Shown here in pieces: positions 1,355 to 28,946 of a DNA stretch of 64,000 nucleotides. The notes beneath the pieces were generated by a model. That model saw nothing but the letters and a program-made list of their open reading frames with translations. It had not been told where the DNA came from and searched no databases. Every line of letters starts with the position of its first letter. Position 1 is the stretch's first letter. Location of the stretch: positions 32,001-96,000 of the forward strand of contig CBDCOZ010000003.1 of NCBI GenBank assembly GCA_965220085.1, in the 5' to 3' direction. Source of the DNA: Candidatus Oxydemutatoraceae bacterium. GTDB taxonomy: Bacteria > Pseudomonadota > Gammaproteobacteria > Poriferisulfidales > Oxydemutatoraceae. The translations under genes were made by a program, and so were the position numbers.

Positions 1355-1474
1355 CTACCGCAACGGGCCCTCAAGAAAGAGGCGCAACCGCAAGCGCAGG
1401 TCTTGGCGAACGCATTCCGTTGCCCCATCGCAATGCGCGGGAGGCGTTGCCCCGAACGCCAAGACGGGCAGGCG
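1355..1474 (-). pseudogene. remnant encoding the LRLRLRLFLEGPLR* C-terminal tail
   Basis: minus strand reads ...ECVRQDLRLRLRLFLEGPLR-TAG (stop 1355-1357); in-frame stop about 40 codons upstream and no ATG in frame. Confidence 0.75.
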
Positions 1475-1649
1475 CTATGCCGCCGCGGGTTCGCGCACCG
1501 GCGCATCTGATGGGACATATCGGCAAGCGGTCGCGCGATGGCGCGCGGGTCGGGACAAGCCGCGCCTTTTGTCTATGCTGTGGCGCTTTCCATGTTAGGC
1601 GCCACGGCCCCATGGCTAGAATTGTATATAAGCCCCCTACAAAGGGCAT

Positions 1650-1682
1650 TTGCATGATTTGCATTTTGTGGTATAGTGCGAC
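1650..1682 (+). promoter_or_regulatory. putative sigma70 promoter of the downstream adhesin-like gene
   Basis: TTGCAT-N16-TATAGT with TG extension, followed by GCGAC; the same TATAGTGCGAC motif occurs upstream of the 27343-28946 paralog. Confidence 0.55.
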
Positions 1683-1711
1683 AATTAACCAATTTACAAA
1701 GGGTTTATGAA

Positions 1712-1904: not shown

Positions 1905-3459
1905 ATGAAACGACAAACTTTTAACACTGCCCCCCCCCCCCCCCCCCCTATCGCACTGGCAGACAACACGAACCCGGCTTAGCCTCTGCTCGCCGCTGGT
2001 AACGCGGCGCAACCTCTTAACACTTCTTCTGCCGGCGCTGTTTGTTGTCTGCGCTCAGGCGCAGGCGCAGAATGCCACCGGCGAACCGGCGGTGACGACG
2101 GTGGTCGATAACGGCATACCTGCGAGTAATCCCCAAGAGAGCGCAACACTGCGCGCAAGCTCTGGCACGATAGACGACACCAATGGCTTCACACGTTCCT
2201 CCATCACCTGGGCATGGCAACAGGGCGACACCGCCGATGGCTCCTTTGCCGCCATAGCCGGGGCCACCGCCTCCGACTTCACGCCCACGCAAGACCAGGT
2301 CGGCAAATACCTGCGCGTCTGTGCCAACTTTAACGATCACGCTGACAACAGCGAGACCCGATGCTGGACATCGTCCGTCGTTGTGAACGCCGCCCCGGTT
2401 GCGAAGAACAACACCATCTATGTGCCGGCGGGCGGCACCTACACTTTCTCGGCGGGTGACTTTCCGTTCACCGATACAGATGGCGGCGGCCTTAGCGGCA
2501 TACGCTTCCTGACCGCACCTACCGGCGCTACAACCGTAAATGTCGCTGGTAGATTCACCCCTCTCAACTCGGATGGGACCCTCACCATTCTTGGTACTGG
2601 TAGCTCCGTACCTGCGACCATAAATCCGGAGCTTATTTTCGCCGTAACCTACACCCCGCCCGCCAACGCCACAGCCATGGCGGGCTATACCAGCTTTACC
2701 TGGAGAGCAGATGATGTCGGAACTGCCGCCACCATCACCATAGATCTGGTGCCGACCACGCAAGAGGCGGCAACCGGCACACCGACGGTGACAGCGGTAG
2801 CCTACAGCGAGGGTGTGGAACTGACCGCCAGCACAGGCACCGTGGCCGATGCCAACGGCATCCCCACCCACAGACTCAACTGGCAGTGGCAATCCGCCGC
2901 CGCCCCCGACACCGGCATCCCGGCCACTAGCACATATGCCAATATCAATGGGGCCACCGCCGCCACCTTCACGCCCGAGCAGGAACATATCGGCCGATAC
3001 ATCCGTGCCTGCCTCCGTTTCATGGATGGCATACGCGCCCAAGAGGGCGGCACCGCCGACTCCCCCACGCTGTGCACCACAGGCAACGTCATCTCCAGGG
3101 CCAATTCGGTGAGTGTGCCGATTACCGCCAGCGAATCAGAGCCCTACGTTTTCAAGCCATCCGACTTCGTGTTCCCGGGCGATGGCGCACTGACCAGCCT
3201 CACCATAGTCACCGCGATAGCAGATGGCACCGGCGCCTTGCGCTTGGCAGGCATGCCCGTCACCGGCGCCCTCCACTTACAAGTGAGCGCTATACCACGT
3301 TTCACCTATTACCCCCCGGATAACTCCGTCGCCACCCCCAGATTCGCCACTTTCACCTTCAGAGTGAATGGCAACACCGCAACCCGCACGATGAACATAC
3401 ATCTGGTGGAGCACCTGCGCTTGCGGTTGCGTCTCTTTCTTGAGGGCCCGTTGCGATAG
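1905..3459 (+). CDS. exported Ig/cadherin-like repeat protein with LRLRLRLFLEGPLR tail; frameshifted at a poly-C tract (phase-OFF), main ORF 2092-3459
   Basis: GAGGAG RBS, ATG 1905 (MKRQTFNTAPPP), C19 at 1930-1948; the +1 frame continues LSHWQ...TRRNLLTLLLPALFVVCAQAQA-QNATG into the 455-aa ORF with W-Q/A-W...GAT...FTP...RVC/RAC modules. Confidence 0.8.
1930..1948 (+). repeat. poly-C tract (C19), putative slipped-strand phase-variation switch
   Basis: lies between the start codon and the signal-peptide h-region; C18 or C21 restores the frame. Confidence 0.85.
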
Positions 3460-3968: not shown

Positions 3969-3975
3969 AACCCTT

Positions 3976-4004
3976 CGGTTCACCCCCACTAGTGTGGGGA
4001 CAAC
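3976..4004 (-). repeat. solitary type I-E CRISPR-like repeat
   Basis: reverse complement GTTGTCCCCACACTAGTGGGGGTGAACCG: 29 nt, I-E-type hairpin and AACCG end; no array. Confidence 0.65.
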
Positions 4005-4088
4005 TTGACATAAGCCACTCATGTATTGAGAGCCCTTCTCGTTCTAACTGTACGGTTACTTTTTGCACCACTCTCTTGCCTTTTGTAT

Positions 4089-5470
4089 GGGAATTATGTA
4101 TTTAACTTGACAGAGGCAGATTATGTCAGGCAGGAAACTTGACAAAGATACCAGTACGCTATATACCTATATCTTAATTCGTTGTTAAACCACTTTGGGG
4201 ATTAGGACTATGAGTAAGAGAAAAGCAGAAATATTAAGCCTATATCAGATTATGGAGCAATACCCGACCGATGAAGCGACCATACGATACCTTGAAAGTC
4301 TGGCATGGAGTGATAAGCCGGTATGTTCTAAATGCGGATGTGATAACAAAATTACAGAGCAAAAGAAAGCTGGCGATTATTGGTGCGGTAGCTGTCGTTC
4401 ATACTTCAATGTATTCACCAATACACCGCTAGAGCGGAATAAAGTAGATGCCAGAAAATGGGTTTATGCTTCCTATACCCTGCTCACTTCACGCAAAGGG
4501 ATAAGCAGTCTGCAATTAAGCAAAGAGATTGGAGTGCAACAAAGAACAGCGTGGTATATGCTTCACCGCTTGCGGGTTATATGTGGCGGGGATATGCAGG
4601 CGCTGCATGGGCAAGTAGAGACAGATGAAACTTATATCGGCGGCAAGGAGAAAAACCGCCATCCCAACAAGAAAAAGCGGGCGGGTCGCGGTGGTGCTGG
4701 CAAGACTGCTATACTGGGTATGCGAGAGCGTAAAGGCAGAGTAAAGGCCATGCCAGTAGAGAACACTACAAAGGAAACACTACAGACCGCCGTACATAAA
4801 AATGTCCGCAAGGGTTCTACCCTTTTTACTGATGAAAACCCCTCATACAATGGTGTTGCCAATCGCCACTATGCGGTTAATCATTCTGCGAAGGAATATG
4901 TAAATGGTATGGCGCACACTAACGGCATAGAATCCGTATGGGCTGTACTCAAGAGAGGTTTTAGCGGTGTGTATCACAACTGGAGTAAGAAGCATTGCAG
5001 GGCTTATGTCAATGAGTTTTCCTTCCGTCTTAACGATGGCAATTGTGAGATAGATACCCAAGACAGATTAAACAGTTTGTTTGCCGGTATGCACGGCAAG
5101 CAGATTACTTATAAGGAATTGACAGGATGAAAACCACCCACAGCATAACTACAGTTTCGGTGAAGGTAGATAATTCAAAAAGGGTTCCTTTGAAATAGAT
5201 TTATCGGTGGTGCTATCCTTCCTTTGAGTATGAAATAGACAATGTAGAGCATGACACATCTAATCAGTCAGATATGCAAATATGAAACAGAAAGACTTAG
5301 ACAGAGCGGCTACGGCACTACTTAAAGCAGGGAAACTGCCGAAGGATAAAGATTGCCCGATACCGACAAAAGCAGACTTAAACCGTAAGTTTGTCATGCG
5401 GGTAGACCGTCAAGGCAAACCCACAATTATTGAGAAATAATACCTCTGTCAAGTTAAATACATAATTCCC
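4089..5470 (+). mobile_element. IS1595-family insertion sequence, copy 1 (1382 bp)
   Basis: 28-bp TIR GGGAATTATGTATTTAACTTGACAGAGG; 8-bp TSD TTTTGTAT (4081-4088 and 5471-5478). Confidence 0.95.
4210..5130 (+). CDS. IS1595-family DDE transposase
   Basis: Zn ribbon (CSKC...CGSC), VETDETYIGG, TDE, HTNGIESVW, YVNEFSFR. Confidence 0.95.
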   Translation: MSKRKAEILSLYQIMEQYPTDEATIRYLESLAWSDKPVCSKCGCDNKITEQKKAGDYWCGSCRSYFNVFTNTPLERNKVDARKWVYASYTLLTSRKGISSLQLSKEIGVQQRTAWYMLHRLRVICGGDMQALHGQVETDETYIGGKEKNRHPNKKKRAGRGGAGKTAILGMRERKGRVKAMPVENTTKETLQTAVHKNVRKGSTLFTDENPSYNGVANRHYAVNHSAKEYVNGMAHTNGIESVWAVLKRGFSGVYHNWSKKHCRAYVNEFSFRLNDGNCEIDTQDRLNSLFAGMHGKQITYKELTG

Positions 5471-6059
5471 TTTTGTATTGCTGTTGACGAACCTATAAGA
5501 GAATAGTTAAAATGTACTTCCCCAATCGGAGTACGTAACTCTAACAACACGGAGTCTGATTCTTCAACTTCCTTAATGGGTTCTCTACCGCCGTCAACAT
5601 TAAAAAAATACACGCCGTGTAATCCCAACAGCATTAAGCGCTCCATTTAGAACCTCACCAGTATCAAACTTCACTCTTGTTTTTGTATACGGTGTGTCAA
5701 AATTTGTACCGCGGAATTTAAGTGTCCCTATAGGAAGTAACCCGTTTATTCTGACAAAGATGTTTTCCGCGCCGTCTAAAAGGCATTGATATTGAACTCT
5801 ACTTTCTAATCCACTATACAGTCCGCTTAGCGCCTGTTCAGGTACCGCATTAGGTGAATATGCATGTGCTCCAGTAGTTTCTCCCGTCATCCTATCAGTG
5901 AATGTCCCGGATTTCCACGCTGCGTGTGATTCATTACACACAAAAACAGCGACAACTAAAACGATAACTAATAAGTCTTTCATATATAACCTCCTTATAT
6001 GATTTCAACTTAGTAAGCCGCGAGTACTTTAATCTCACGGCACTGGGGAGCACATCCCA

Positions 6060-6088
6060 AGGTTCACTCCCGCTAGTATGGGGACAAC
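6060..6088 (-). repeat. second, degenerate type I-E CRISPR-like repeat
   Basis: 25/29 identical to 3976-4004, same orientation. Confidence 0.55.
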
Positions 6089-6094
6089 TTAAAC

Positions 6095-6274
6095 ATGAAA
6101 ACCATTAATAACATGCTCAATTCAACCAGAAAAGAAGTTGTTATAGATGCTTTGAGTAATCATTGTGAAACCCTTTACAAATTGCTAAAAGAGCTGGTTG
6201 AGACTGAAATCAACTATAGTGATGACAACCTTGATAAAGATGTAGCTAAAATTTTCAACGAGGTTTTTGATTAA
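6095..6274 (+). CDS. small acidic hypothetical protein (59 aa)
   Basis: open frame MKTINNMLNSTRKEVVIDALS...NEVFD* starting 6 nt after the repeat. Confidence 0.35.
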   Translation: MKTINNMLNSTRKEVVIDALSNHCETLYKLLKELVETEINYSDDNLDKDVAKIFNEVFD

Positions 6275-6296
6275 TGTGACATATTGTCAAAGCAAG

Positions 6297-7211
6297 TCAT
6301 TGCTCAGGTTGTAGTCCAATCGATTCTATCTTCTTGCAAAGGTCCTCAGTACTTTGCAAATACGCATCTAGGGATTTAAGGTCCTCAAACTGGATGGCAG
6401 ATGGGTTCTCAGAAACTTCTTGGTTGCTGAAAATTTTCCAAAAAGTCTTCCTATATTGATTACTTATGCTTTCAAGACTATCTATGTCTGAATGAGCTAG
6501 TTTATTTCTAATGTGTTTTAGAAGCTCAATTCTAGCTTTTGTTTCCTTATCGACATTAAAAGCCTTTTTATATTTCAGATACTTGTTATCAAAAGTTATC
6601 ACATCCCGAAGATTCTCTTTGATTTTAAGCTTTTCGTCAAAAATCTTCTCAACCCTTAGTGCTACATCAATGATTGCCGTTCTAACATGAACTTTTAGTA
6701 TGCTTTTTGAAATCTTATCCTTTTGGGATTTGGACGGAAAGTTCTTGCGCCGAGTTTCCTCAAGAGTATATTTGTCACTAAATTTCTTTTTCAATTTATC
6801 GCGCAAATCTTCCACACCCTCTGGCCCATAACCCTGCCCCTCTTCTTGATATCTGCTATTAATAAGACAAGAAACACTATCACTTTTAATAAGCGAGTGT
6901 ATTCTGCTCATGATATTTATTAACTTACTATTGATAGTTCTTATTGAGGCACTAGGACCGATGCCTTGCAAATGCAAATCTAAGAAAATATATTTAATAG
7001 TTGAAAGTTCTACATTGGCAAAACGCTCTAAATCATCATCCTCACCACTTGAGCAGGCAACTCTTATATTGTTCTTCAATAATTGAAGAACAAACCGGGA
7101 AACATCAGCAACATCAGCAACATCGTCTTTTGCACCTTCCTCAGAAAGTCCTTCAGTTTCGCCTTCTTGTAGTTCAAAGACATCATCAATAATCAAAACA
7201 TCATATAACAT
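6297..7211 (-). CDS. receiver (REC) domain fused to a HEPN-like domain
   Basis: VLIIDD and YIFLDLHL receiver motifs; C-terminal RNKLAH (RxxxxH). Confidence 0.7.
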   Translation of the reverse strand: MLYDVLIIDDVFELQEGETEGLSEEGAKDDVADVADVSRFVLQLLKNNIRVACSSGEDDDLERFANVELSTIKYIFLDLHLQGIGPSASIRTINSKLINIMSRIHSLIKSDSVSCLINSRYQEEGQGYGPEGVEDLRDKLKKKFSDKYTLEETRRKNFPSKSQKDKISKSILKVHVRTAIIDVALRVEKIFDEKLKIKENLRDVITFDNKYLKYKKAFNVDKETKARIELLKHIRNKLAHSDIDSLESISNQYRKTFWKIFSNQEVSENPSAIQFEDLKSLDAYLQSTEDLCKKIESIGLQPEQ

Positions 7212-7213
7212 AG

Positions 7214-9319
7214 CTAAGTTGCATCCCTCGGAAATCTTAATTTAATAATTGCTCCTTGTGAAAATTCTTCAGGAAGATTCTCTTCTTGCCAATCGCCCTG
7301 CTCAATAGAGCCTTTATGTGCCAGCATTACCTGTTCCGCTAAATGTAGCCCTATCCCCATGCTACTGTCATCAAACCGCCCGCTAATAAATGCGCCTAAC
7401 GCAGCTTCAAAGCTAATATTAAATCCTTTGCCATTATCAGCCACCAATATAACAGTAGATTTTTCATCACCGTAAGCACGGATATATATTTTCTTCTTTT
7501 CTATTTTGTAAAAACTCAACCAATAAATAGCATTATCAAAAAGATTCATCAGAACCCCAATGATTAACCCCTTTTTTCCAGAAATACTAAGTTCATCTCC
7601 CTTTAAGTCTGTTCGCAGTTCAATACCATGGGAGTCAAAACGGAATTCAGTATTAGAAATTGATTGATTGATTAGCCCTTTCACTGAAATATTAGAGCTT
7701 TTCTTTTTTAATTGAATCGTTGTCTTATAAGCAGCAATGGTTTCTTTTAGATGGATAAAAGCAGCATTTATCTTATTAAAATCTTTCTCTAGAATTTTTT
7801 TCTCAAGGTGGTCAATTATTTTGTCAACTTCATGAATAATAAAAGAAAGGTTTAACCCGGTATTAGCGGCAGTAAGAAAAACATTTTTTAATTGCGAAAA
7901 CTCCTCAGAAAATTCATAAATCCTTGCCTTGAATTTATCTTTTTCCTCGTCACTGAGATTAAGCTTGTTGACCTCCTTAACAATTTTTTTAATTTTTGTT
8001 TCTATATCCGCTTTATCGTATTCCTTGCCAAGCAAAGGCTCCATATTTGCCCGATCAATTTTGCGATAGTGCAATACCACCTCCATACAAAAATCAAGGT
8101 CTTGTTGCAAGCTTAGAAAGGTCTGATTGTGAATAAAACCCTCTCGGTTAGTTTTCTCAATCAGCGCCCTACTCTTTTCTCGGTCAAGTTCAATTATGGC
8201 AAGAATTTGATTGTAGCCAATATTATCTCCGAGCCTTTTTGCCCGTTTTCGATCTAGGTTAAGAATATCATTATCCTTTCCTCCTTCACCGTAGTTATAG
8301 ACTCTCATACCATCGCGATAGACGCGAATGCCTCCATTGTTCCTAAGATAATCGTTGATTATTTTTATATGAGGGCTACCAAGACTTCTGGAAAACTTGC
8401 TATCAAAAATGTAGCCTTGAAAAGTGACCGGACCAACATCTGACGGCTTCACTTCTTGATTATCCGCAGCAATGTGTTCGCAGTATTTAGCTCTTAATGA
8501 TTCAAGCTTATCTTTAATATCATCCAATTCAATCTTTTTGCTCGGTATCTTTTGAACATTCGGCGATCTAAACTCATACTCAAAGCTTGTGACTTTGCCC
8601 TTTTCGAAAACAATAAAATAACGAAAAAGTGCTTTGGCACAAACATCATCTACACTCAACTGGTCTTCAGTTTGGGAAGGGTTACCATTAGTTGTTAAAT
8701 CAATTTGGAATTGATCTTGAATACGAGAAGCAAAGGGAGGGAGCATCTTTAACAAGTCACTTCGGAGCTGTTTAATATCCTTGTCTTTTAAGGAGTCCTT
8801 TAATCTCTCAATGGTTAATCGGGTGCCAGTTGCGCCATCCTTAAAAACAGTTTCAGAAGTATGTTCAATTACTTGAATAGGGTTTAAATCGTTGATATAT
8901 TCAGCTTCCTCTAGGTCTTTCCAGTTTATATGGAAAGACACCTCTTTATGATTGGCTTGCTTTGAAATGACTGTTATCTCTTCGCCCAGTTTATGTGCAC
9001 CTAACCTTCCCACACCTTTTTCGCCGATTGGCATCCTCTGATATTTAGGTGTTCTGTTTTGTCCGGAAGACTTTGGGCTATTCCCTGGCCTAAGCCAGTA
9101 ATCTTTAATAATCTGCGTATTCATCCCTATACCATCATCTTCTATGATAATCTTGTCGTCCTCAATGCTCAGAACGCACTTACTAGCATCAGCGTCATAG
9201 GAGTTTTTCACTAACTCAGCAATAGCGATTTTCTTATCATGAATAAGCTCTTCACCTAAAAAACGAATTAGTTTTGGCGAGAACTCAAAAACATAATTGT
9301 GTTTTTGTTCAGGTTTCAT
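7214..9319 (-). CDS. GHKL (MORC/MutL-like) ATPase fused to a histidine kinase
   Basis: N-terminal ELVKNSYDA, DDGIGM, GEKGVGR; C-terminal H-box IIHE, NLFDNA, DNGKG, GIGL. Confidence 0.85.
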   Translation of the reverse strand: MKPEQKHNYVFEFSPKLIRFLGEELIHDKKIAIAELVKNSYDADASKCVLSIEDDKIIIEDDGIGMNTQIIKDYWLRPGNSPKSSGQNRTPKYQRMPIGEKGVGRLGAHKLGEEITVISKQANHKEVSFHINWKDLEEAEYINDLNPIQVIEHTSETVFKDGATGTRLTIERLKDSLKDKDIKQLRSDLLKMLPPFASRIQDQFQIDLTTNGNPSQTEDQLSVDDVCAKALFRYFIVFEKGKVTSFEYEFRSPNVQKIPSKKIELDDIKDKLESLRAKYCEHIAADNQEVKPSDVGPVTFQGYIFDSKFSRSLGSPHIKIINDYLRNNGGIRVYRDGMRVYNYGEGGKDNDILNLDRKRAKRLGDNIGYNQILAIIELDREKSRALIEKTNREGFIHNQTFLSLQQDLDFCMEVVLHYRKIDRANMEPLLGKEYDKADIETKIKKIVKEVNKLNLSDEEKDKFKARIYEFSEEFSQLKNVFLTAANTGLNLSFIIHEVDKIIDHLEKKILEKDFNKINAAFIHLKETIAAYKTTIQLKKKSSNISVKGLINQSISNTEFRFDSHGIELRTDLKGDELSISGKKGLIIGVLMNLFDNAIYWLSFYKIEKKKIYIRAYGDEKSTVILVADNGKGFNISFEAALGAFISGRFDDSSMGIGLHLAEQVMLAHKGSIEQGDWQEENLPEEFSQGAIIKLRFPRDAT

Positions 9320-10656
9320 TTTTTCTTTACCTTCAATATGTATTCTTCATGATAGGCAAGAACCTTACCCCTTGTTGTTTTAGATGTGAATTTACCGGTA
9401 TCTTTATCGCGATAAGGGGCAATCATTTTGCGAGTATTGGCATCTCTTTTAATGACATCATCCAAATCAAACCCTAAATTCAGTAGCTGCTCCAAAGCTA
9501 CCTGCGCATTAAGTATAGATACCCCAAGAAGATTTGTATTCCCAATAATAATGCAAGCCTTTTTATCTTTTCTCAGTAAGCGATGTATGGATCGAAAGGC
9601 TTTGTTCATTCGCAAAAAATAGGTATTAATTTTGCGAGATAAAGCCTTGTTACTTTGTTCCATTTGCTTAACGATATTTAACGCAATATCGCTACCCAAA
9701 CGATGCGCTGCCTGATTATCTATACAAAGACTACTGCCTATGAAATCATCTATACGAAGGCTGCTGCCTATGAAATAACTCTTGAATGATCTGAAGTCTC
9801 GTATATGCGTCCCCCAATTTTTATATTTTTTATGCCCAAGCCATAGAAGTGTTAATTGATGCAAATCCCCATACTCATAAGAGGTAACATAAGGCGGCGA
9901 AGTAATAATTAAGTCTGCTTTTAACTTACTATGATTTTTTTTAGTAATATCTTGCAGGTAAATATTGCTCGCTAAAGATAGGCGTTTTTCTGCTTTTAAA
10001 TAGTGGTAAAAAATCTCATTTTTTTTCACCATTCTATTTAGATGATTTATAAATGTTTTGAAGACATCAATCTCTTGTTTATTAGAGTCAATCGTTGGTT
10101 TTATGCTTTTCATAAGCCAGCGAGAAGCATTCTTTAAGCAATGCGATAGCGCACAGATAAAAAATTTTTGAATATCTGGCTTTTCCTCTTCTAAAATCGC
10201 ACTGTGAATATGGCTTAGAGCATCATAGCTTCCCTTGGAAAACCAGTATTGAATTCGTTCCGTGGCCTTGTAGTAATCACTGCCCACAGCTTGACTATCT
10301 TCCATCCGTCTTACCAAGCGGTCTTGAGCATCTATAAGCGTATCTGGATTAATTGGCTTTACCTTTACTTCAGTAATAAGTTTTGCAACCGGATTTATAT
10401 CAAAACCAAAGCTTTCTCTGCCATTTATTTTTGCCTCAACTAACGTGGTTCCACACCCGCCGAAAGGGTCACAAACTATATCTTTCTCGTTACATTCTTC
10501 TTCAATTAGTCTCTTTGCTAAAGGGCCAATGAATTTTGCCGGGTAACGATGATAATTATGGGAATATACTTCGTACTTATCGTGTGCAAACGACCACTTG
10601 CCATCAAATGACAATCTCCCAAATCTCTCTTTTACTTCTATTTTTTTTGATGGCAT
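9316..10656 (-). CDS. amino-DNA methyltransferase (probably N4-cytosine)
   Basis: HRYPAKF, DPFGGCGT (motif I) preceding TSPPY (motif IV). Confidence 0.88.
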   Translation of the reverse strand: MPSKKIEVKERFGRLSFDGKWSFAHDKYEVYSHNYHRYPAKFIGPLAKRLIEEECNEKDIVCDPFGGCGTTLVEAKINGRESFGFDINPVAKLITEVKVKPINPDTLIDAQDRLVRRMEDSQAVGSDYYKATERIQYWFSKGSYDALSHIHSAILEEEKPDIQKFFICALSHCLKNASRWLMKSIKPTIDSNKQEIDVFKTFINHLNRMVKKNEIFYHYLKAEKRLSLASNIYLQDITKKNHSKLKADLIITSPPYVTSYEYGDLHQLTLLWLGHKKYKNWGTHIRDFRSFKSYFIGSSLRIDDFIGSSLCIDNQAAHRLGSDIALNIVKQMEQSNKALSRKINTYFLRMNKAFRSIHRLLRKDKKACIIIGNTNLLGVSILNAQVALEQLLNLGFDLDDVIKRDANTRKMIAPYRDKDTGKFTSKTTRGKVLAYHEEYILKVKKK

Positions 10657-10716
10657 GCATCCATTTCCATTTTAGTGCATTGGATGTAGGATTATATCAG
10701 GCTTGATTAGGGGGAA

Positions 10717-10900
10717 TGTATGATGCCATGACATATTGGACACATGGGGCAAGCGTTGTGCTGTGTCATAGGTGCTTGAAGCCTCAGTCCGTAGTGTGGT
10801 TTCTTCGTGGTGTTTTGGTATTAAACCATAGCAGATATTTTATCCGACAATCATTGAATGTCCGCATATCGGTCCTCAACAAACCCGCTTCAAATTCCGC
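10717..10900 (-). mobile_element. IS481-like remnant: transposase C-terminus and right end
   Basis: AEFEAGLLRTDMRTFNDCRIKYLLWFNTKTP resembles an IS481 C-terminus; end TGTATGATGCCA resembles the 3968 and 41520 ends; homologous to 41210-41290. Confidence 0.55.
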
Positions 10901-11001
10901 AAACAGTTTGTGGAGCACAAACAACTTAAGGAACCACAAACAATTAAATATTGTTTGTGCTCTCATATCGTTTGTGTCTCATTAAGCGTTGTTTGTGTAC
11001 A
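10899..11001. repeat. CAAACA half-site array with palindromic site 10935-10959
   Basis: cacaaacaat-taaat-attgtttgtg; shares caaacagtttgtggagcacaaacaact with 1233-1259 and the tgtgtacat end with ~1785-1794. Confidence 0.8.
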
Positions 11002-13170: not shown

Positions 13171-13189
13171 CTTAATACGCCCTCGTGAA

Positions 13190-18086: not shown

Positions 18087-18983
18087 ATGAATAAAAGCTT
18101 TCTAAACAAAGTGTTCTATAAAAACGCTCAGAATATGAGCGAAGTTCCCGATGAGGCAGTTGACCTCATTGTCACATCGCCGCCATACTTCAACATCAAA
18201 GATTACACAAAGGACGGCTATCAAAAGATTTCAAAAGCGGAAAGGCACATAAATCAACTGGGAGATATTGACGACTACCAAATTTTTATCAATGAGTTGC
18301 TGAAAGTATGGAACGAATGTGAAAGAGTTTTGAAACCAAATGGGAAAATGATAATAAATACTCCGCTTATGCCGATGAAGAAAGCGGATTATTTGACACA
18401 TTACAACAGACACATATTTGATCTTAATTCTGATATACAGCAGTCAATCCTGCGTCAAGAAGAGACAAAGATATTTCTGTACGATGTTTATATCTGGGAC
18501 CGCGCCAACCCGAGCAAAAAGCTGATGTTTGGCAGTTATCCGTATCCGCGAAACTTCTATGCGCAAAATACAAGCGAGTTCGTAACCGTTTATGTGAAGG
18601 ACGGCAAGCCGATAAATGATTCTCCCAGAGAAGTCAAAGAAGCGAGCAGACTCACCGAGGAAGAATGGGTTGAGTTCACAAAACAGGTTTGGCGAATACC
18701 TGTCCCCGGCAGGGATGATATTGCTTTTGGAAAACATAGCGCGCTTATGCCGGAGGAAATAGTTTATCGTTGCGTGAGACTGTTTACTTATGTTGATGAT
18801 GTGGTTCTTGACCCCTTCGCGGGGAGCGGGACAACGCTGAAGGTGGCAAAAGAAGCGAAGCGCAATTTTATCGGATACGAAGTGATGAGTAATTACAAAG
18901 AAGTGATTAATAAGAAGCTCATAGAAGCCGAAAGAAAACTCAGCGGAAATTATCCCAACGAGCAATTATGCATAGAGGCCTAG
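18087..18983 (+). CDS. beta-class DNA methyltransferase (SPPY, probably m4C; M2.MboII-like)
   Basis: TSPPY precedes DPFAGSGT. Confidence 0.9.
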   Translation: MNKSFLNKVFYKNAQNMSEVPDEAVDLIVTSPPYFNIKDYTKDGYQKISKAERHINQLGDIDDYQIFINELLKVWNECERVLKPNGKMIINTPLMPMKKADYLTHYNRHIFDLNSDIQQSILRQEETKIFLYDVYIWDRANPSKKLMFGSYPYPRNFYAQNTSEFVTVYVKDGKPINDSPREVKEASRLTEEEWVEFTKQVWRIPVPGRDDIAFGKHSALMPEEIVYRCVRLFTYVDDVVLDPFAGSGTTLKVAKEAKRNFIGYEVMSNYKEVINKKLIEAERKLSGNYPNEQLCIEA

Positions 18984-19101
18984 TTTATACTTGTGATTCG
19001 GCCTTTGGCTATCCGCAGAGAATGGGAAAGAACGGAGGCGCGACTTTATTGGCCGGGAAGTAGCGGGGGTTAACACAGGCCGAAAGAAAGCCCAAGAGAT
19101 T

Positions 19102-19920
19102 ATGCCAAGAGAAATTACACCGAATAAGATATATCAGATGGACTGCTTCAAATTTTTGGGGCAGATCGACGATAGTGTTGCGGACCTTGCCGTAATTGAT
19201 CCGCCATACAATTTGCGAAAAGCGAACTGGGACACCTTCGAATCAGAAAAAGCGTTTTTCGACTTCACGTATTCTTGGATTGACGAGCTAATTCCCAAAC
19301 TTAAAGATAATGGGAGTTTGTACATATTCAACACTCCGTATAACTCCGCATTTATACTTCAATACCTTGCGAGCAAGGAGCTTCATTTTCAAAATTGGAT
19401 AACTTGGGACAAACGAGACGGAATGGGCGGCGCACGAAGACGCTTTAGTAATGGGCAAGAAACCATCACATTCTTTACAAAAGGCAAAAGGCACACCTTC
19501 AACTATGACGATGTTCGCGTGCCTTATGAATCGACAGAGCGCATTGAGCATGCAAAAAAAAAGGGAATATTGAAAAATGGAAAACGTTGGTTTCCAAATC
19601 CCAAGGGACGACTTTGTGGCGAAGTTTGGCATATGGCAAGCGAGAGACATAGAAATAAAGTAAATGGCAAAGTGCAAAAAGCGGAACACGCCACGCCGAA
19701 GCCATCGGAACTGATAGAAAGAATTATTGCGGCCAGTTCAAATCCGCACGACTTAATTTTGGATTGTTTTGCCGGCGTCGGAACAACGGCAGTCGCTGCA
19801 AAAAGATTGAACAGAAACTTTCTTTGTTGCGATTCGGAAAAGGGGTATGTGGAAATAGCCAGGAAACGGTTGAAAGAAGTTAAATCACATGACCAAAAGA
19901 GCACAAGAAATCTTAAATGA
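19102..19920 (+). CDS. beta-class m6A DNA methyltransferase (M1.MboII-like)
   Basis: IDPPYN, WDKRDGMG, GILKNGKRWFPNP, TPKP; closely recalls M1.MboII (from memory, needs BLAST). Confidence 0.9.
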   Translation: MPREITPNKIYQMDCFKFLGQIDDSVADLAVIDPPYNLRKANWDTFESEKAFFDFTYSWIDELIPKLKDNGSLYIFNTPYNSAFILQYLASKELHFQNWITWDKRDGMGGARRRFSNGQETITFFTKGKRHTFNYDDVRVPYESTERIEHAKKKGILKNGKRWFPNPKGRLCGEVWHMASERHRNKVNGKVQKAEHATPKPSELIERIIAASSNPHDLILDCFAGVGTTAVAAKRLNRNFLCCDSEKGYVEIARKRLKEVKSHDQKSTRNLK

Positions 19921-23442: not shown

Positions 23443-23461
23443 ACTAGCAGGCAGCGGCTAC

Positions 23462-24456: not shown

Positions 24457-27123
24457 GTGAAAATGAATGACGCTAAGAAAATCCGTACGAACGGGAAACA
24501 AAAAGCTCCGCCGTATTTTGACGGGGGAGACCGCAACGGTGCGTCGGAACACTACGAGGAAGCGCTCTCATCTTACGACAAGGCCATTGCGTTGAATCCG
24601 GATGATGCGGTAGCACATGACAATCGGGGGTTTGCCCTGACTCATTTAAATCGTCACGAGGAGGCGCTTGCGTCTTACGACAGGCTTATTGAGTTATATC
24701 CGGATAATGCGATAGCGCATGGCAATCGGGGGTTTGCCCTGACTCATTTAAATCGTCACGAGGAGGCGCTCGTATCTTACGACAAAGCCATTGCGTTGAA
24801 TCCGGATGTTGCGGCAGCGCATAACAATCGGGGGTTTGCCCTGGCTCATTTAGATCGTTACGAGGAGGCGCTTGCGGCTTATGACAAGGCCATTAAATTG
24901 GATCCGGATGATGCGACAGCGCATAGCAACCGAGGGCTTGATCTGGCTCATTTGGATCGTCACGAGGAGGCGCTTGAATCTTACGACAAAGCCATTGCGT
25001 TGAATCCGGATGATGCGCAGACACATAGCAATCGGGGGATTACTCTGAATTATTTGGATCGTCACGAGGAGGCGCTGGCAGCTTTTGACAGGGCTATTGA
25101 ATTGAATCCAAAACATACGCCGGCACACAATAGTCGGGGAAATGCCCTGTGTGGCTTGGGTCGCCATAAAGAAGCGCTGGCAGCTTACGACAAGGCCATT
25201 AAGTTAAATCCGGATGATGCGCAGGCGCATAATAATCGGGGGATTGTCCTGCGTGATTTAGGTCGTGACAAGGAGGCGCTGGCGGCTTACGACAAGGCCA
25301 TTAAGTTGGATCCAGATGATGCGGAGGCATATAATAATCGGGGGATTGTCCTGCGTGATTTGGGTCGCTATCAGGAAGCGCTGGTCGCTTACAACAAAGC
25401 TATTAAGTTGGATCCGGATGATGCGGAGGCGCATAATAATCGGGGGATTACCCTGCGTGATTTGGGTCGTTACGAGGAGGCGCTGGCAGCTTCCGAAAAG
25501 GCTCTTGCGTTGAATCCCGAATATGCGGCAGCACATAGCAGTCGAGGGATTGCCCTGACTCATTTAAATCGCTGCGAGGAGGCGCTGGCAGCTTACGACA
25601 AGGCCATTGCGTTGGATCCGGATGATGCGGAGGCGCATAATAATCGAGGGATTACCCTGCGTGGTTTGGGTCGTCACAAGGAAGCGCTCGCAGATTACAA
25701 CAAGGCTATTGCGTTAGAGCCGGATGATGCGGCAGCACATAACAATCGGGGGACTGCCCTGGCTCATTTAAATCGTTACGAGGAGGCGCTCGCGGCTTTC
25801 GACCGGGCTCTTGAGTTACATCCGCATGATGCGCAGGCGCATAACAATCGGGGGATTGCCCTGCGTGATTTGGGTCGCTATCAGGAAGCGCTGGTCGCTT
25901 ACAACAAAGCCATTAAGTTGGATCCGGATGATGCGCAGGCGCATAATAATCGGGGAAATGTCCTGCGTGGTTTGGGTCGCTATCAGGAAGCGCTGGCAGA
26001 TTACAACAAGGCCATTAAGTTGAATCCGGATGATGCGCAGGCATATTTGCATCGGGGGGGTATCCTGTGTGATTTGGATTGTCATGAGGAGGCGCTTGCA
26101 TCTTACGACAAGGCCATCGCGTTGAATCCGGATGATGCGCAGGCGCATAGCGATCGAGGGAGCGCCTTGTGTGATTTGGGGCGTCATGAGGAGGCGCTCG
26201 CGGCTTTCGACCGGACTCTTGAGTTAGATTCGGATGATGCGGAGGCATATCTTTATCGGGGGGTTGCCCTGTGCGGTTTGAAGCGTCTTGAGGAAGCGCT
26301 TGCGGCTTTCGACCGGACTCTTGAGTTAGATCCGTATGATGCGGAGGCATATTTTTATCGGGGGAATGTCCTATATGATTTGGGGCGTCATGAGGAGGCG
26401 CCCGCGGCTTTCGGCAAGGCTGCTGAGTTAGATCCGTATGATGCGAGGACCTATGTTCATTGGGGGGTCGCCCTGTGCGGTTTGGATCGTCATGAGGAAG
26501 CGCTCGCGGCTTACGACAAGGCTCTTGAGTTAGATCCGTATGATGCGAGGACCTATTTTCATCGGGGGGTCGCCCTGTGTGGTTTGGATCGTTTTGAGGA
26601 GGCGCTCGCGGCTTACGACAAGGCTCTTAAGTTAGCTCCGGATGATGCGGAGGCATGTTTTTATCGGGGGCTTGTCCTATCTGATTTGAATCGTCTTGAG
26701 GAGGCGCTCGCAGCTTTCGGCAGAGTTATTGAGTTAGATCCGGATGATGCGGAGGCGCATAATCAAAGAGGAGATGTCCTGCATGATTTGGGGCGTCATG
26801 AGGAGGCGCTCGCGGCTTTGGGCAAGGTTATTGAGTTAGAGCCGGATGATGCGAGGACCTATTTTCATCGGGGGAGTATCCTGACTGATTTAGGCCGTCA
26901 CGAAGAGGCGCTCGCGGCTTTCGACAAGGCTCTTGAGTTATATCCGGATAATGAGAGGGCGCATAATAAGCGAGGAGATGCCCTGCGTGATTTGGGGCGT
27001 CTCAAAGAAGCATGCGCCGCCTGGGAAGAGGCCAAACGGCTGGCCGGGCTTGCGGGCGACTCCAAGGTTGCGGGAGAAGCGTCTCACAAACTTGGCAAGT
27101 TTTGCGATGACAATGGCGCATGA
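24457..27123 (+). CDS. tetratricopeptide repeat protein (~24 TPRs)
   Basis: 34-aa/102-bp unit A.AH.NRG..L..LGR.EEALAAYDKA..L.P.D across nearly the whole length. Confidence 0.93.
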   Translation: MKMNDAKKIRTNGKQKAPPYFDGGDRNGASEHYEEALSSYDKAIALNPDDAVAHDNRGFALTHLNRHEEALASYDRLIELYPDNAIAHGNRGFALTHLNRHEEALVSYDKAIALNPDVAAAHNNRGFALAHLDRYEEALAAYDKAIKLDPDDATAHSNRGLDLAHLDRHEEALESYDKAIALNPDDAQTHSNRGITLNYLDRHEEALAAFDRAIELNPKHTPAHNSRGNALCGLGRHKEALAAYDKAIKLNPDDAQAHNNRGIVLRDLGRDKEALAAYDKAIKLDPDDAEAYNNRGIVLRDLGRYQEALVAYNKAIKLDPDDAEAHNNRGITLRDLGRYEEALAASEKALALNPEYAAAHSSRGIALTHLNRCEEALAAYDKAIALDPDDAEAHNNRGITLRGLGRHKEALADYNKAIALEPDDAAAHNNRGTALAHLNRYEEALAAFDRALELHPHDAQAHNNRGIALRDLGRYQEALVAYNKAIKLDPDDAQAHNNRGNVLRGLGRYQEALADYNKAIKLNPDDAQAYLHRGGILCDLDCHEEALASYDKAIALNPDDAQAHSDRGSALCDLGRHEEALAAFDRTLELDSDDAEAYLYRGVALCGLKRLEEALAAFDRTLELDPYDAEAYFYRGNVLYDLGRHEEAPAAFGKAAELDPYDARTYVHWGVALCGLDRHEEALAAYDKALELDPYDARTYFHRGVALCGLDRFEEALAAYDKALKLAPDDAEACFYRGLVLSDLNRLEEALAAFGRVIELDPDDAEAHNQRGDVLHDLGRHEEALAALGKVIELEPDDARTYFHRGSILTDLGRHEEALAAFDKALELYPDNERAHNKRGDALRDLGRLKEACAAWEEAKRLAGLAGDSKVAGEASHKLGKFCDDNGA

Positions 27124-27342
27124 TGCCAATCCCGTCGGCGGAGTAAAGCCGACCGCCCCCGACCGCCCCCGACCATCGCTTGCGGAGTCGCAACGAAGGC
27201 AAATGTTAAACGCATCGTTTGACGAAGCGGACAAGGCGTCGCACCGCTGATCTGACTTGCAATTGCGCCGGCGCGGGCATGTCGCAAGCGGGTTTTCGCA
27301 GACGCTGCCATGGCGCCCGTCACCGATTGCGGGTGACTCGCG

Positions 27343-28946
27343 CTATCGCAACGGACCTTCCAGGAAGAGGCGCAGGCGCAAGCGCAGGCTGTCCGGGAGA
27401 TTCACCAGATCTATGGTGAGGGTGGAATCGGCGGCGGCCTCGTTGGCGCTGCCGGCAACCGAAGTGCAAAACCCCCGGGGGTCGCATGCTCTGACCACGG
27501 CGCTGACATCGCCGGTATCCCGCACCCGGTATCCGAATGTCGCATAGCCTGTGGTGGCGGTGGCGCCGTCAGCCGGATAGTACGCCAAGTTGTTCAGTTG
27601 GCCCAGGGTCAGCTCGGTGCCGACGGCTATGGCGGTATCGGCATCGTCCGCCAGCGCCAGAGTGCCGGTCGTGGGCAGGGCGGTTATGCGGATGCCGTTG
27701 ATGGTGTCGCCGCCTTCATCAGCAAAAGGGAAGTCCCCCTTGGCAAAGCGGTGCGGCTCGGCGGAGCTGGCGGTTATCGGCACCCCGACAGTGCTGGGGC
27801 CGCCAATGGGCTGGTCACTGACATGAGACACTGCGGCCCTGAAGGTCAGCGTGTCGGTCTCCCCGTCCGCATCGGTGGCGGTATAGGTGTATTGGGTCAT
27901 GGCGGATACCGCCGTGGGCATGCCGCTGATGGCGGCGGTGACGGCATCAAAGCTCAGGCCCGCAGGCAGGGCCGGGCTTATGCTGTAGGCGGTGTTATTG
28001 CCTCCGGTGGCCCGGGGCAATACCAGAATTGAGGGCCATGCGGTCAGCCAAAGTTGGTCGGTCACTGATGCATCGCCAAAATCGGGCGCGCTGTTTGCCA
28101 CCAGGTTGATGGTCATGGCGGCGGCAGGACCAGCGCCATAACCGGTAACAAACACTTCGAAATTAAAGATGTCGTAACCAGTGCCTACAGTGGCATTGGC
28201 AGGGGGTGTGTATGTGAATCCATTTGCACTAATGAATTCGCTTGCGAACACAGATGCAGGAGCTCCCGTAGGCACCAATCCGCTGATTGTAAGAGTGCCA
28301 TTGGCGGGCAACCTCGTCATGAGCACAGTAACTGGAGATGGATAATCATCACCCCCCTCGTCTTCATGACGAAAATCGCTGAGGCGAAAGCGGGATATGC
28401 GGCCAACAGGGAAGTCGACACTGCTGGGCAGGGGGTTGACATCATTGAAGTTGGTCACCGCCGCAACGGAGGTCCAGCAACGGGTCTCTTCGTTGCTTTT
28501 GTCATCGTCAAAGGTGGCACAGACGCGGACAAACTTGCCCACATGCTCCTGCAGGGGGATGAATTCGGCGGCGGTGGCCCCGGCTATGGCGGAGTAGGCA
28601 CTGTCCATGGGGGTGCCGCTGGCCGGGGCATCGGCCTCATACCAGGCCCAGGTGGGCGTGAATGTGGTTATGCCATCGTCATCATCTATGGTGCCCTGGG
28701 CTGCGGTGAGTACTCTGTCCTCATTCGGGCCGACCATGGTCAGGTCGGCGCTGTCGGCCGCCGTGACCGCCGGTGCGCCAGTGGCATTCTGCGCCTGGGC
28801 CTGCGCACAGACAACAAACAAGGCCGGCAGAACCAGCGACCAGAAGCTACGCCGGGTTAGCGTTGCCCGCCAATGCGTACGCGGGAAGGGGGGGGGGGGG
28901 TAGAAGTATTAAAGATTTTTTGTTTCATGCTATTTTTTAGGTTCAT
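27343..28946 (-). CDS. exported Ig/cadherin-like protein with LRLRLRLFLEGPLR tail; frameshifted at a poly-C tract (phase-OFF), main ORF 28821-27343
   Basis: AGGAG RBS, ATG 28946/28928 (MKQKIFNTSTPPP), C13; the shifted frame reads FPRTHWRATLTRRSFWSLVLPALFVVCAQAQA-QNATG; contains a putative-Ig LPAGLSFD module. Confidence 0.82.
28888..28900 (-). repeat. poly-G/C tract (13 nt), putative phase-variation switch
   Basis: 11 or 14 nt restores the frame. Confidence 0.85.

Follow-up and report, generated by a model that had tools for sequence, protein, structure and literature searches.

Why do secreted proteins with differing bodies end in the same 14 residues, and what could recognize such an ending? 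The question arises from a 64-kb stretch of DNA (hereafter the window), for which the initial annotation described four genes and one remnant with a common C-terminal tail and proposed either an export signal or a donor strand docking its carriers onto a common scaffold.

The tail family in the window and in the genome

A degenerate back-translation of LRLRLRLFLEGPLR matched exactly five sites in the window, at 3415-3455 on the forward strand and at 11077-11117, 12303-12343, 27347-27387, and 1359-1399 on the reverse strand, whereas none of 100 shuffles was matched. The translations of 2092-3459(+), 11073-12302(-), 12299-13087(-), and 27343-28821(-) all terminate in LRLRLRLFLEGPLR followed by the stop, which confirms both the coordinates and the shared ending first described. 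The fifth site is the remnant (1355-1399, reverse strand), a short frame of tail codons and stop without a gene body.

All four proteins were said to have signal peptides, which is true of the coding sequence; in the frames as assembled, however, an in-frame ATG with a signal peptide is found only in the gene at 11073-12302(-) (409 aa, tail codons 11076-11117). This gene lacks a poly-C tract and begins with an ATG that overlaps the stop of the tail gene upstream; its matches to SCAB-Ig-type Ig domains are weak and below the cut-off. The other three have short ATG leaders at 1905(+), 13170(-), and 28928(-), split from the signal-peptide frame by 19, 21, or 13 C. The gene at 1905-3459(+) opens with the leader MKRQTFNT and a C19 tract (1930-1948), followed by signal-peptide coding sequence (..LLLPALFVVCAQAQAQ), an Ig-like body, and the tail with its TAG stop (3415-3459); leader and body are out of frame as assembled. 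In the gene at 12299-13170(-), the ATG leader (13170-13168) is followed by a C21 tract (G on the forward strand, 13123-13143), just past which the ATG frame meets a stop, and a 262-aa frame runs from a TTG at 13087 to the tail codons (12302-12343). The gene at 27343-28928(-) comprises a 492-aa frame with a He_PIG Ig domain and tail codons at 27346-27387, and its leader (ATG 28928-28926, C13 tract 28888-28900) is likewise out of frame as assembled.

Genome-wide, the family exceeds the four genes originally stated by a factor of about 50. A six-frame scan of the 2.49-Mb genome with [FLIVM]LEG.LR gave 227 matches, 220 of them with a stop directly after, the tail having the form ..RLRL[LVI]FLEGPLR-stop. 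These 220 frames account for approximately 8% of the genes in a crude call set and for 21% of all residues coded. Signal-peptide-like N-termini were detected by a crude test in 153 of the 181 tail frames that are 150 aa or longer; the approximately 220 cargoes, of which nearly all have Sec signal peptides, include giants of 6,000-15,000 aa. With 5' poly-C tracts in 83 tail genes, the coat of Ig-, cadherin-, and FN3-like tail proteins is, judging from these tracts, apparently phase-variable. Tandem mini-units also bear the tail, and in three paralogues the motif is internal, lying approximately 25 aa past the signal peptide and before a GGSS linker, with the motif kept and its flanks diverged. 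When the 353 non-tail neighbors of tail genes were clustered, the groups obtained were only those of transposases, of a coiled-coil family, and of similar kinds, with no candidate accessory family among them.

In an alignment of the 220 copies, the first and second codon positions carry information of about 2 bits, the third of 0.6-1.6 bits. Conservation sets in at -42 nt and is lost by about +12 nt, with weak conservation of about 9 nt past the stop. The last 7 codons show almost no amino-acid change, and among 30 paralogues the tail is invariant although the bodies are 27-65% identical. The codon-period conservation and the near-invariance of the last 7 codons argue for protein-level selection, and the tail is a protein-level tag under such selection. 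Its invariant part is FLEGPLR rather than the L/R run, and the terminal residue is Arg in all 220 terminal copies and Gln or Asn in relatives. Synonymous variation of the tail codons, reported initially for the window, is seen genome-wide as well. Codon choice is nonetheless skewed by position (CGA and CGG are the only codons for the last Arg, CTC and CTT those for the Leu at -8), which indicates that concerted evolution or some nucleotide-level constraint acts too. TAG is over-used as a stop, in 140 of 220 tails (TAA 52, TGA 28) against 289 of the 1,237 remaining frames that have a stop. Read-through or recoding at the tail stop was rejected, since all three stop codons are used and the next gene may start on the stop. 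An inverted repeat formed by the LRLRLR codons of the tail and the AQAQAQ codons where the signal peptide is cleaved was rejected as well, as AQAQAQ occurs in only 28 of 169 tail genes; the longest 5'/3' complementarity (12 nt) is near that of non-tail genes and of shuffled pairings.

The view that this is not a known C-terminal signal stood up: the tail matched no NCBIfam or Pfam entry in the libraries searched, the four window proteins matched no NCBIfam sorting-signal model, and a full-text literature search with the motif strings found no paper. Tripartite signals consist of a motif, a transmembrane helix of approximately 20 aa, and a basic cluster, whereas the tail is 14 aa without a hydrophobic helix. 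The C-terminal aromatic residue of the outer membrane protein beta-signal, the last strand recognized by BAM, is replaced here by Arg. Type 9 secretion C-terminal domains (beta-sandwiches of approximately 80 aa, type A or B) gave no Pfam or NCBIfam match, and the phylum is Pseudomonadota. Type 1 secretion and RTX adhesins are marked by RTX nonapeptide repeats, an uncleaved C-terminal signal, and the lack of a Sec signal peptide; here, tail frames have Sec-like N-termini, no RTX family matched the four window proteins, and the genome contains one TolC-type gene. For type Va secretion, PF03797 had no match in the genome, the window proteins included; searches of the genome with ShlB, YadA_anchor, and IAT_beta, for types Vb, Vc, and Ve, gave no matches either, and the genome has a single Omp85 protein. 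PF03797 is carried by a foreign homologue of the body (P0014, 58% identical). For the body of the 11073-12302 protein, no homologue was found in the relatives G002, G006, G011, G013, or G017. An autotransporter barrel acting in trans on the tail proteins was considered and dropped, as the genome searches found no type V component.

Domain X, fused and as a stand-alone body

The tail corresponds to part of a larger unit, an unannotated C-terminal domain of approximately 250 aa with a beta-sandwich and a dockerin-like part, for which we use the working name domain X. In a Flavobacteriales metagenome-assembled genome (MAG) and in the same-family relative G001, domain X is fused to the ends of large secreted proteins. 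In the MAG, RLSLRLRVFLEGPFDAVGGMMKDDLRQLSLLPISEPY comes after a choice-of-anchor B domain, and an adjoining gene has VKAFLEGPYVDGTGLMNDALR; the giant frames of G001 finish with GARVYLQGAYAGSGGMSTGLIDVLPRRQPY and the domain X body. In these proteins, strand 1 of the domain follows the pattern h-[KR]-h-[FYW]-L-[EQ]-G-[AP] directly after the last cargo domain, and the tail has the same pattern in the same place, with ..RLRLFLEGP.. alongside ..LRLRVFLEGPF.., ..VKAFLEGPY.., and ..ARVYLQGAY.. of domain X strands. The Flavobacteriales strand (approximately 11 residues) was found with a pattern designed for finding it, so that its weight comes from its context and not from the match. Relaxed scans of the collections gave only 2 and 4 single matches, of which two are the Flavobacteriales domain and the rest look like chance. 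From these alignments we read the tail as the first beta-strand of domain X, homologous to that strand in the fused domains. The initial annotation counted it against its own reading if the motif were a fragment of a catalogued domain; a domain fragment it is, but the domain itself is unannotated and of no catalogued function.

The remainder of domain X, recognizable by M..L...P..PY, VDWVLVELR, SNGRVVDA, HRNH, and the dockerin-like end, is absent in cis from the tail proteins. Since this body is present once as a separate gene, the arrangement is read as a split form. With the Flavobacteriales domain as query, both tblastn and blastp matched one frame in this genome, over query residues 65-213, which exclude strand 1. 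The two sequences are 27.6% identical over 196 aa (E 1.1e-10 by tblastn against the genome, 4.4e-11 by blastp against a crude ORF set). The frame (G000:C3:469169-470137) encodes a body of 322 aa with its own signal peptide and without strand 1, the mature protein (residues 31-322) starting at QRSMNTGLSDFIPADDPYC, where strand 1 would have ended. Among 21 homologues of the stand-alone body, the signal peptide directly precedes a QRSMNTGLSDFIPADDPYC-type start in 20 and one begins at that start; strand 1 is found in none.

A family profile of domain X gives matches in its C-terminal third to dockerin modules of the PDB (5k39_B, E 5.2e-5; 2b59_B, E 1.5e-4), and the first dockerin repeat of the body in this genome looks degenerate when read by eye. 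The fold as a whole gave no Foldseek match against the PDB at E <= 0.001.

The gene for the 322-aa body neighbors those for a 1,369-aa GlyGly-CTERM-like protein, with a Gly run, a helix, and RRQRR at its C-terminus, and for a rhombosortase (TIGR03902, 96 bits against a cut-off of 84 bits), and the last gene of a type II secretion operon lies approximately 3 kb upstream. Secretion genes identified are GspC, D, A, B, E, F, G, J, K, and GspL, together with a GspM-like frame with a weak match (E 0.004); the frame adjoining it is taken as GspN by position alone. The strand-less body lies in a conserved gene order, as the succession of body, large GlyGly-CTERM-like protein, and rhombosortase is kept in this genome (G000), G011, and G006. 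Judging from its C-terminus, the 1,369-aa neighbor rather than the tail proteins is plausibly the rhombosortase substrate. Pfam found nothing in this neighbor, and no cohesin-like partner for the dockerin-like part was found there.

A search of the genome and its relatives, as initially suggested, found that the tail is not confined to the window paralogues or to this genome. Matches to a relaxed tail pattern exceeded those to a control in G000 (218 vs. 3), G007 (36 vs. 1), G011 (17 vs. 1), G002 (15 vs. 1), and G003 (7 vs. 2), and slightly in G012 (6 vs. 4), whose sites are read as true tails. All six of these genomes have stand-alone bodies, and in G002 a gene ending in LLRVKLFLEGPFR and its stop is followed within about 20 nt by a body gene. 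In G001, where domain X is fused, there are no tails. Five relatives (G004, G005, G006, G009, and G010) have stand-alone bodies with no tail excess by the relaxed pattern, so that either tails differ there or the body has a tail-independent function. A strict DNA pattern (RLRLFLEGPLR and stop) found nothing in 40 relatives or in collections of genome and metagenome contigs, a pattern too narrow because relatives have K or V elsewhere and Q or N at the end. A tail pattern one residue shorter before the stop gave no excess over control in any genome.

A GlyGly-CTERM-like tail ends giant frames in G010 (12 matches), G006 (10), G008 (5), and G005 (4). Within one family, giant frames thus finish in a fused domain X (G001), a GlyGly-CTERM-like tail, or, in the six genomes with a tail excess, the short tail; from these endings, the three anchors would be interchangeable on homologous giant proteins within a single bacterial family.

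Proposed docking mechanism and alternatives

The initial annotation also proposed modeling the tail against candidate partners. By prediction alone, the tail is placed inside the stand-alone body, with ipSAE values of 0.81, 0.80, and 0.79 against 0.00 for the best of 3 controls. The runs have at least 88% of contacts in common, with a partner pLDDT of 56-58. Among solved complexes, 58 of 80 attain the ipSAE mark used, as do 2 of 110 mismatched pairs; the score is the model's own confidence, obtained with unpaired alignments and chain pLDDT values of 56-63. A search turned up no solved relative of the sandwich, so that the model is unlikely to have reproduced a known structure. The predicted interface comprises residues 28-41 of a 45-mer tail and 45 receptor residues, of which 12 are invariant in the family, compared with 34 of 292 overall (one-sided Fisher p = 0.0018). 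In the prediction, the tail contacts lie buried between several strands in the core of the sandwich, a placement more in keeping with fold completion than with edge augmentation. The model of the fused domain is only moderate (mean pLDDT 65.6), and an AlphaFold2 model of the 262-aa window protein, with the tail as a low-confidence helix (pLDDT approximately 50) unpacked on its own protein, is uninformative.

Together, the homology to strand 1, the secreted body lacking that strand, and the complex prediction lend partial, computational support to donor-strand docking onto a common scaffold, one of the two roles first considered. A gene fission in this lineage would have split strand 1, now the tail on the cargoes, from the rest of domain X. 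After Sec export, the tail may fill the missing strand of the stand-alone body by beta-strand complementation in trans, and one receptor may hold many interchangeable cargoes. The dockerin-like part of the receptor, the 1,369-aa GlyGly-CTERM-like protein with its rhombosortase, and the type II secretion operon could then bring the complex to the surface or hold it there. We regard pairing of tail and receptor by strand complementation as probable. The chain behind it, including surface anchoring and the exit route, is suggested by gene context and is more tentative. A complete tag-and-catcher display, in which some 220 genes, 83 of them poly-C switchable, carry a 14-residue strand that completes the fold of one secreted receptor, falls a little short of probable. 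A single receptor gene for approximately 220 cargo genes would require high expression or a transient, chaperone-like role.

Alternatively, a secretion machine could read the tail as an export signal, for instance through a PDZ-like C-terminal part of GspC, with the stand-alone domain X irrelevant or secondary. The complete type II secretion system, the lack of matches to type V components, and the position of the tail at a free C-terminus in 220 of 227 cases are in line with this, and GspC ends in a stretch that appears PDZ-like by eye, Pfam giving T2SSC only. In PMC12369372, the EpsC PDZ domain is reported to be required for secretion of VesB. We consider this explanation unlikely: the motif is internal in three proteins, and neither the identity of the tail with strand 1 of the fused domain nor the co-occurrence of a strand-less body with tails is explained. 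Rhombosortase, moreover, is present in all 12 same-family relatives searched, while tails occur only in some.

A second alternative is that the tail acts as a self-sufficient anchor in the membrane or LPS. With Leu on one face and Arg on the other, it would be a cationic, amphipathic beta-strand by which secreted proteins adhere to the anionic surface of the outer membrane, no protein receptor being needed. Strict L/R alternation is visible in the sequence, and the tail alone was modeled with low confidence and unpacked on its own protein. In anti-LPS peptides, lipid A-binding motifs are described in which basic and hydrophobic residues alternate. However, the part kept invariant is not the L/R run, which in relatives and fused forms is replaced by RVRVKV or xARVY with few charges, and a receptor-free anchor explains neither the complex prediction nor why the tail is homologous to a strand inside a domain, making it rather improbable. 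Least likely is a vestige of a lost domain X kept by recent descent or gene conversion, or in a variant a conserved DNA stretch for recombination between members, an idea that draws on unsaturated synonymous sites with position-specific codon choice, the weak conservation past the stop, the tail-bearing mini-units, and the over-use of TAG, but that conflicts with the 3-nt periodicity and near-zero amino-acid change in the last 7 codons, with the same peptide being kept by different codons in relatives of other genera and occurring in unrelated foreign proteins, and with the failed inverted repeat.

If strand complementation is correct, the tail would represent a new class of bacterial sorting signal, whose partner is neither an enzyme nor a pore but a fragment of a fold that it completes in trans. 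A small-genome proteobacterium would run a huge, apparently phase-variable coat via one common attachment device, and gene fission would be the origin of a many-to-one protein interaction. The unannotated domain, widespread in Flavobacteriales and this family as the C-terminal part of secreted proteins, gains a testable function. The three alternative anchors on homologous giants in sister genomes make the anchor question directly testable, and the natural pair of a 14-residue tag and its receptor (approximately 290 residues) is a possible display tool.

Comparison with known systems

In chaperone-usher and type V pili, a strand supplied in trans completes the incomplete beta-sandwich of another protein. 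The arrangement predicted here is similar in that a short strand with alternating hydrophobic residues would complete the sandwich of another protein in trans. Unlike in pili, hundreds of unrelated cargoes carry the strand as a C-terminal tag (N-proximal in 3 proteins), their one receptor would not polymerise, and the pair would derive from fission of one domain.

GlyGly-CTERM/rhombosortase and other tripartite C-terminal signals such as PEP-CTERM and LPXTG (PMC3237569 and PMC6219818) share with the tail the use of a short C-terminal signal by many cargoes with one partner. In addition, GlyGly-CTERM is found on giant adhesin-like proteins of the same type in sister genomes, and a rhombosortase lies within the same locus as the stand-alone body. 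The tail, however, has no transmembrane helix or terminal basic cluster, and its proposed partner is a binding domain and not a protease or transpeptidase.

Cellulosomes assemble many cargoes non-covalently on a cell-bound scaffold through cohesin-dockerin or X-dockerin pairs. Many cargoes on a cell-bound scaffold are proposed here too, and the C-terminal third of domain X is dockerin-like. In contrast to cellulosomes, the cargo has one strand and no dockerin, the dockerin-like part lies on the receptor, no cohesin was found by Pfam in the 1,369-aa neighbor, and the host is a diderm proteobacterium.

In beta-augmentation, as between the TonB box and the TonB C-terminal domain or between PDZ domains and C-terminal peptides, short strands of many proteins pair with an edge strand of one common domain, whereas the predicted tail contacts lie within the sandwich core. 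A parallel in design is offered by SpyTag/SpyCatcher and other engineered split domains, in which a tag of 13-14 residues is split off from a domain whose remainder serves as the catcher. Here too, a short tag would meet the remainder of its own domain as catcher, but as a natural and presumably non-covalent pair with no indication of isopeptide chemistry.

The C-terminal tail and the selection acting on it

All five tail sites that the initial annotation placed in the window were recovered at their positions, that is, four genes (1905-3459 on the plus strand and 11073-12302, 12299-13170 and 27343-28928 on the minus strand) and one remnant (1355-1399, minus), with none in 100 shuffles. The C-terminus described as common to the four genes is indeed shared, as all end in LRLRLRLFLEGPLR and a stop. 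The window corresponds to C3:32001-96000 of an assembly of 2.49 Mb (three contigs, 55.5% G+C). A six-frame scan of the whole assembly with [FLIVM]LEG.LR gave 227 matches, of which 218 read FLEGPLR and 220 are directly followed by a stop. Frames of at least 150 aa are closed by 181 of the 220 terminal copies, the other 39 being short frames or remnants, and 153 of these 181 frames have a signal-peptide-like N-terminus by a crude test. In a crude non-overlapping gene set, the tail ends 169 of 2,043 frames and these make up 154,080 of 747,710 residues (20.6%). Giant proteins of 15,140, 14,180, 13,236, 9,776, and 6,024 aa are among the tail-ended ones.

In three paralogues (C1:36358-38001, C1:23868-25292, and C3:1171425-1173515), the motif is internal, placed about 25 aa past the signal peptide and ahead of a GGSS linker; the bodies consist of PPC-domain repeats in two of them and have no Pfam match in the third. 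Mini-units that end in tail and stop, four of 156 nt and four of 168 nt, are arrayed in tandem at C3:513726-514229 and C3:908934-909485.

The tail is under selection at the protein level, as the initial annotation had suggested. Among 220 aligned copies, conservation begins 42 nt upstream of the stop and fades about 12 nt beyond it, and within the tail it follows the codon period. Apart from Leu and Arg codons, whose first position can vary synonymously, codon positions 1 and 2 carry about 2 bits each; position 3 carries 0.6-1.6 bits. The tails close with three different stop codons (TAG 140, TAA 52, TGA 28), and the tail stays invariant across thirty paralogues with body identities of 27-65% to the 262-aa window protein. 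The last Arg is encoded by CGA or CGG, with CGC at 1% versus 45% of Arg codons genome-wide, and TAG is commoner than in other genes (TGA 540, TAA 408, TAG 289). Since the synonymous sites are not saturated and TAG is overused, concerted evolution or recent spread also contributes. An inverted repeat between AQAQAQ and LRLRLR codons was tested and did not hold.

Poly-C/poly-G runs of at least 9 nt number 90 in the genome, mostly 13-28 nt long, versus two of poly-A/poly-T. The regions from -200 to +400 nt around the 5' ends of tail frames add up to 4.5% of the genome and contain 83 of the 90 runs. There the tract is preceded by a short ATG leader (MK.Q.FNT), leads into the signal peptide and codes for a PPPPPP stretch (window 1930-1948, 13123-13143, and 28888-28900). 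Of the 83 tract-bearing frames as assembled, 18 are in frame with the leader and 55 are not; in the other 10, no leader could be recognized. The tracts look like slipped-strand phase variation of many surface-protein genes, judging by sequence and bearing in mind that homopolymer lengths are error-prone in assemblies.

The window has further features. Two IS1595-type transposase copies with identical Pfam scores lie at window 4195-5130 and 13296-14231, and the crude gene set holds 11 members of this family. A low-G+C island (about 4000-10700; 35-42% versus 55%) contains a DNA methylase at 9316-10656, a 701-aa protein at 7214-9319 that carries two HATPase_c-type domains, and a 304-aa frame without a family; more methylases are found at 18087-19920. 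Clusters of the short repeat cacaaaca/tgtttgtg (1200-1310 and 10900-10990), 40-90 nt downstream of two tail stops, could be mobile-element ends or binding sites. An 888-aa protein with about 23 tetratricopeptide repeats adjoins a tail gene (24457-27123). Elsewhere in the genome, 10 members of a coiled-coil family (n = 14; e.g., C3:106210-106509, 496566-498538, and 1135289-1136584), which starts with MKKPKDLKAEDTAGVAYDPVDNLT and has EFAKFE-type repeats, are within two genes of a tail gene; none of the 14 has a signal peptide.

Known signals, secretion routes, and tails in other genomes

The tail is a genuine feature that was not found in any library or literature searched, in line with the remark in the initial annotation that it resembles no familiar C-terminal signal: the four window proteins matched no sorting-signal model in NCBIfam or Pfam, giving weak Ig-type matches only, and the motif strings had no match in a full-text literature search. 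The genome encodes one Omp85 protein, two secretins, one TolC-type gene, and a complete type II secretion system; autotransporter, ShlB, YadA-anchor, and intimin beta-domains were searched for in it and none was found. Directly 5' of gspC lies a 750-aa O-antigen-ligase-like protein (Wzy_C and TPR; L055:4817-7069, equal to C3:449817-452069).

A strict DNA pattern had 150 sites, all in this genome, and none in 40 relatives or two public collections; this pattern was too narrow. A profile of 44 tail-protein C-termini (A1), searched against 5.8 billion proteins, returned 115, of which 113 came from the genome itself; one foreign FN3-repeat protein (P0163) ends in MRLRLRVFLEGPLR and has no tblastn match in the genome at E <= 1e-10. 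When 1.84 billion representatives were searched exhaustively with HMMER, 106 proteins passed E <= 0.001, and the 48 newly listed ones comprised 24 from the genome and 24 foreign, nine of the latter ending in the tail (eight ..FLEGPLQ, one ..FLEGPL). Another foreign protein (P0014, on a 7.3-kb contig) has a passenger region 58% identical to the window protein 11073-12302 and then runs into an autotransporter beta-domain (PF03797), a fourth C-terminal end type on the same kind of body.

The search of related genomes suggested by the initial annotation found the tail once 20 relatives were scanned with the looser pattern [FYW]L[EQ]G[AP]xx-stop, for which the same pattern read backwards served as control. 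Against 218 matches (control 3) in the genome under study (G000), there were 36 in G007 (1), 17 in G011 (1), 15 in G002 (1) and 7 in G003 (2), with a slight excess in G012 (6 versus 4), none in G001 (3) and control level in all remaining genomes of the scan. The tails read ..IRVRVKVFLEGPLR in G011, ..LRIRVKVFLEGPLQ in G002, ..LRLRLRVFLEGALQ in G003, and ..VRVRVRVFLEGPLQ in G012, each followed by the stop.

A C-terminal domain in fused and stand-alone form

A relaxed scan of the collections matched a Flavobacteriales MAG in which a choice-of-anchor B protein (TIGR04312, E 1.2e-94) is followed by an unannotated C-terminal domain of about 245 aa (here domain X) that opens ..RLSLRLRVFLEGPFDAVGGMMKDDLRQLSLLPISEPY..; the adjoining MAM/lysyl-oxidase protein ends in the same domain, opening ..VKAFLEGPYVDGTGLMNDALR... 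Apart from trivial 13-residue matches to tails, this domain has one significant match in G000, a 322-aa frame at C3:469169-470137 (query residues 65-213, 27.6% identity over 196 aa; E 1.1e-10 by tblastn, 4.4e-11 by blastp). The 322-aa protein, referred to below as the putative receptor, has no Pfam or NCBIfam family; its signal peptide (..LLSAHANA, then QRS) leads to a mature start MNTGLSDFIPADDPYC, the segment next after strand 1 in the fused domains. In 20 of 21 aligned public homologues of similar length (201-369 aa), the signal peptide is directly followed by M..L...P..DPYC, the remaining one beginning at the motif, and strand 1 is absent from all 21.

With the single 322-aa protein as query, this body has a homologue in 13 of 18 same-family genomes and in none of 22 genomes of the order's other families; a family profile adds G012 and G005, and G008 has none even with that profile. 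Most relatives encode the homologue on its own, in a frame of 265-335 aa. In G001, all 19 matches are parts of giant frames (687-16,130 aa), and the five frames read contain the whole domain X, terminal in four and followed by more sequence in one. The openings there (..GARVYLQGAY.., ..AHVYLQGAY.., ..ARAWLQGAY.., and ..ARVFLQGAY..) continue into ..M.T.LI..LP...PY.. and the body. Each of the six genomes in which tails exceed the control (slightly so in G012, where the tails were read directly) has stand-alone bodies, and G001, with the fused form, has no tails; G004, G005, G006, G009, and G010 have bodies and no pattern-visible tails. In G002, no more than about 20 nt separate a cargo gene ending in ..LLRVKLFLEGPFR and stop from a downstream body gene that has its own signal peptide, a pair that would match the leftover expected from fission of a fused gene.

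About 3 kb past the final type II secretion gene comes the gene for the putative receptor. It is followed after 10 nt by a 1,369-aa protein and then by a rhombosortase (TIGR03902, 96 bits versus an 84-bit cut-off; both at C3:470148-475604, outside the window). The 1,369-aa protein ends in GGGGGGGG (a Gly run), a hydrophobic helix, and RRQRRYE, and has a weak choice-of-anchor U match (30.3 bits versus a 32-bit cut-off). G011 and G006 have the same order of body, large GlyGly-CTERM-like protein, and rhombosortase, and G007 has it approximately. Many giant frames end in sequence that matches the C-terminal ~100 aa of the G000 1,369-aa protein, namely in G010 (n = 12), G006 (n = 10), G008 (n = 5), and G005 (n = 4), all without tail excess; among the tail-excess genomes, the 1,369-aa query matches such an end once or twice in G000, G011, G002, and G003, not at all in G007, and in G012 a single match falls elsewhere in the 1,369-aa protein than at its C-terminal end. 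Vibrio GlyGly-CTERM proteins are described as rhombosortase-processed, surface-retained type II substrates (PMC6219818, PMC13393428). Within one bacterial family, proteins of the same kind thus have three alternative ends (a fused domain X, GlyGly-CTERM, and the short tail), and it is mainly for this reason that the tail is read as an anchoring device.

Predicted docking of the tail onto the putative receptor

Dockerin modules of solved structures match the last ~65 positions of the body family profile (5k39_B, E 5.2e-5; 2b59_B, E 1.5e-4), and a Foldseek search of the PDB returned nothing for the sandwich part of domain X at E <= 0.001. An AlphaFold2 model of a fused G001 domain, of moderate confidence (mean pLDDT 65.6, pTM 0.68), has a short first strand (residues 8-12) and then the sandwich. 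The tail is not packed onto its own protein in an AlphaFold2 model. Modelling with a candidate partner, as the initial annotation had proposed, placed it on the receptor: mature residues 31-322 (alignment A3) with the 45-residue C-terminus of 11073-12302 (A1) gave ipSAE values of 0.81, 0.80, and 0.79 versus 0.00 for the best of three controls, with at least 88% of contacts agreeing between runs and a partner pLDDT of 56-58. Of 80 solved complexes, 58 attain this ipSAE mark, as do 2 of 110 mismatched pairs, a rough guide here as our own alignments were used. In the confident predicted interface, tail residues 28-41 (RPLHLRLRLRLFLE) face 45 residues of the receptor, among them the VVDWVL, SNGRVV, and HHRNH blocks, and these 45 are enriched in family-invariant residues (12 of 45 versus 34 of 292 in all; odds ratio 3.7, one-sided Fisher p = 0.0018).

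The best explanation of the tail is that it would be the split-off first strand of an uncharacterized anchoring domain, predicted to dock many cargo proteins onto one stand-alone receptor. The kind of mechanism is already known and belongs to strand complementation or augmentation. What differs, and is new, is the arrangement, a putative many-to-one sorting tag born of domain fission and carried by a fifth of the proteome.
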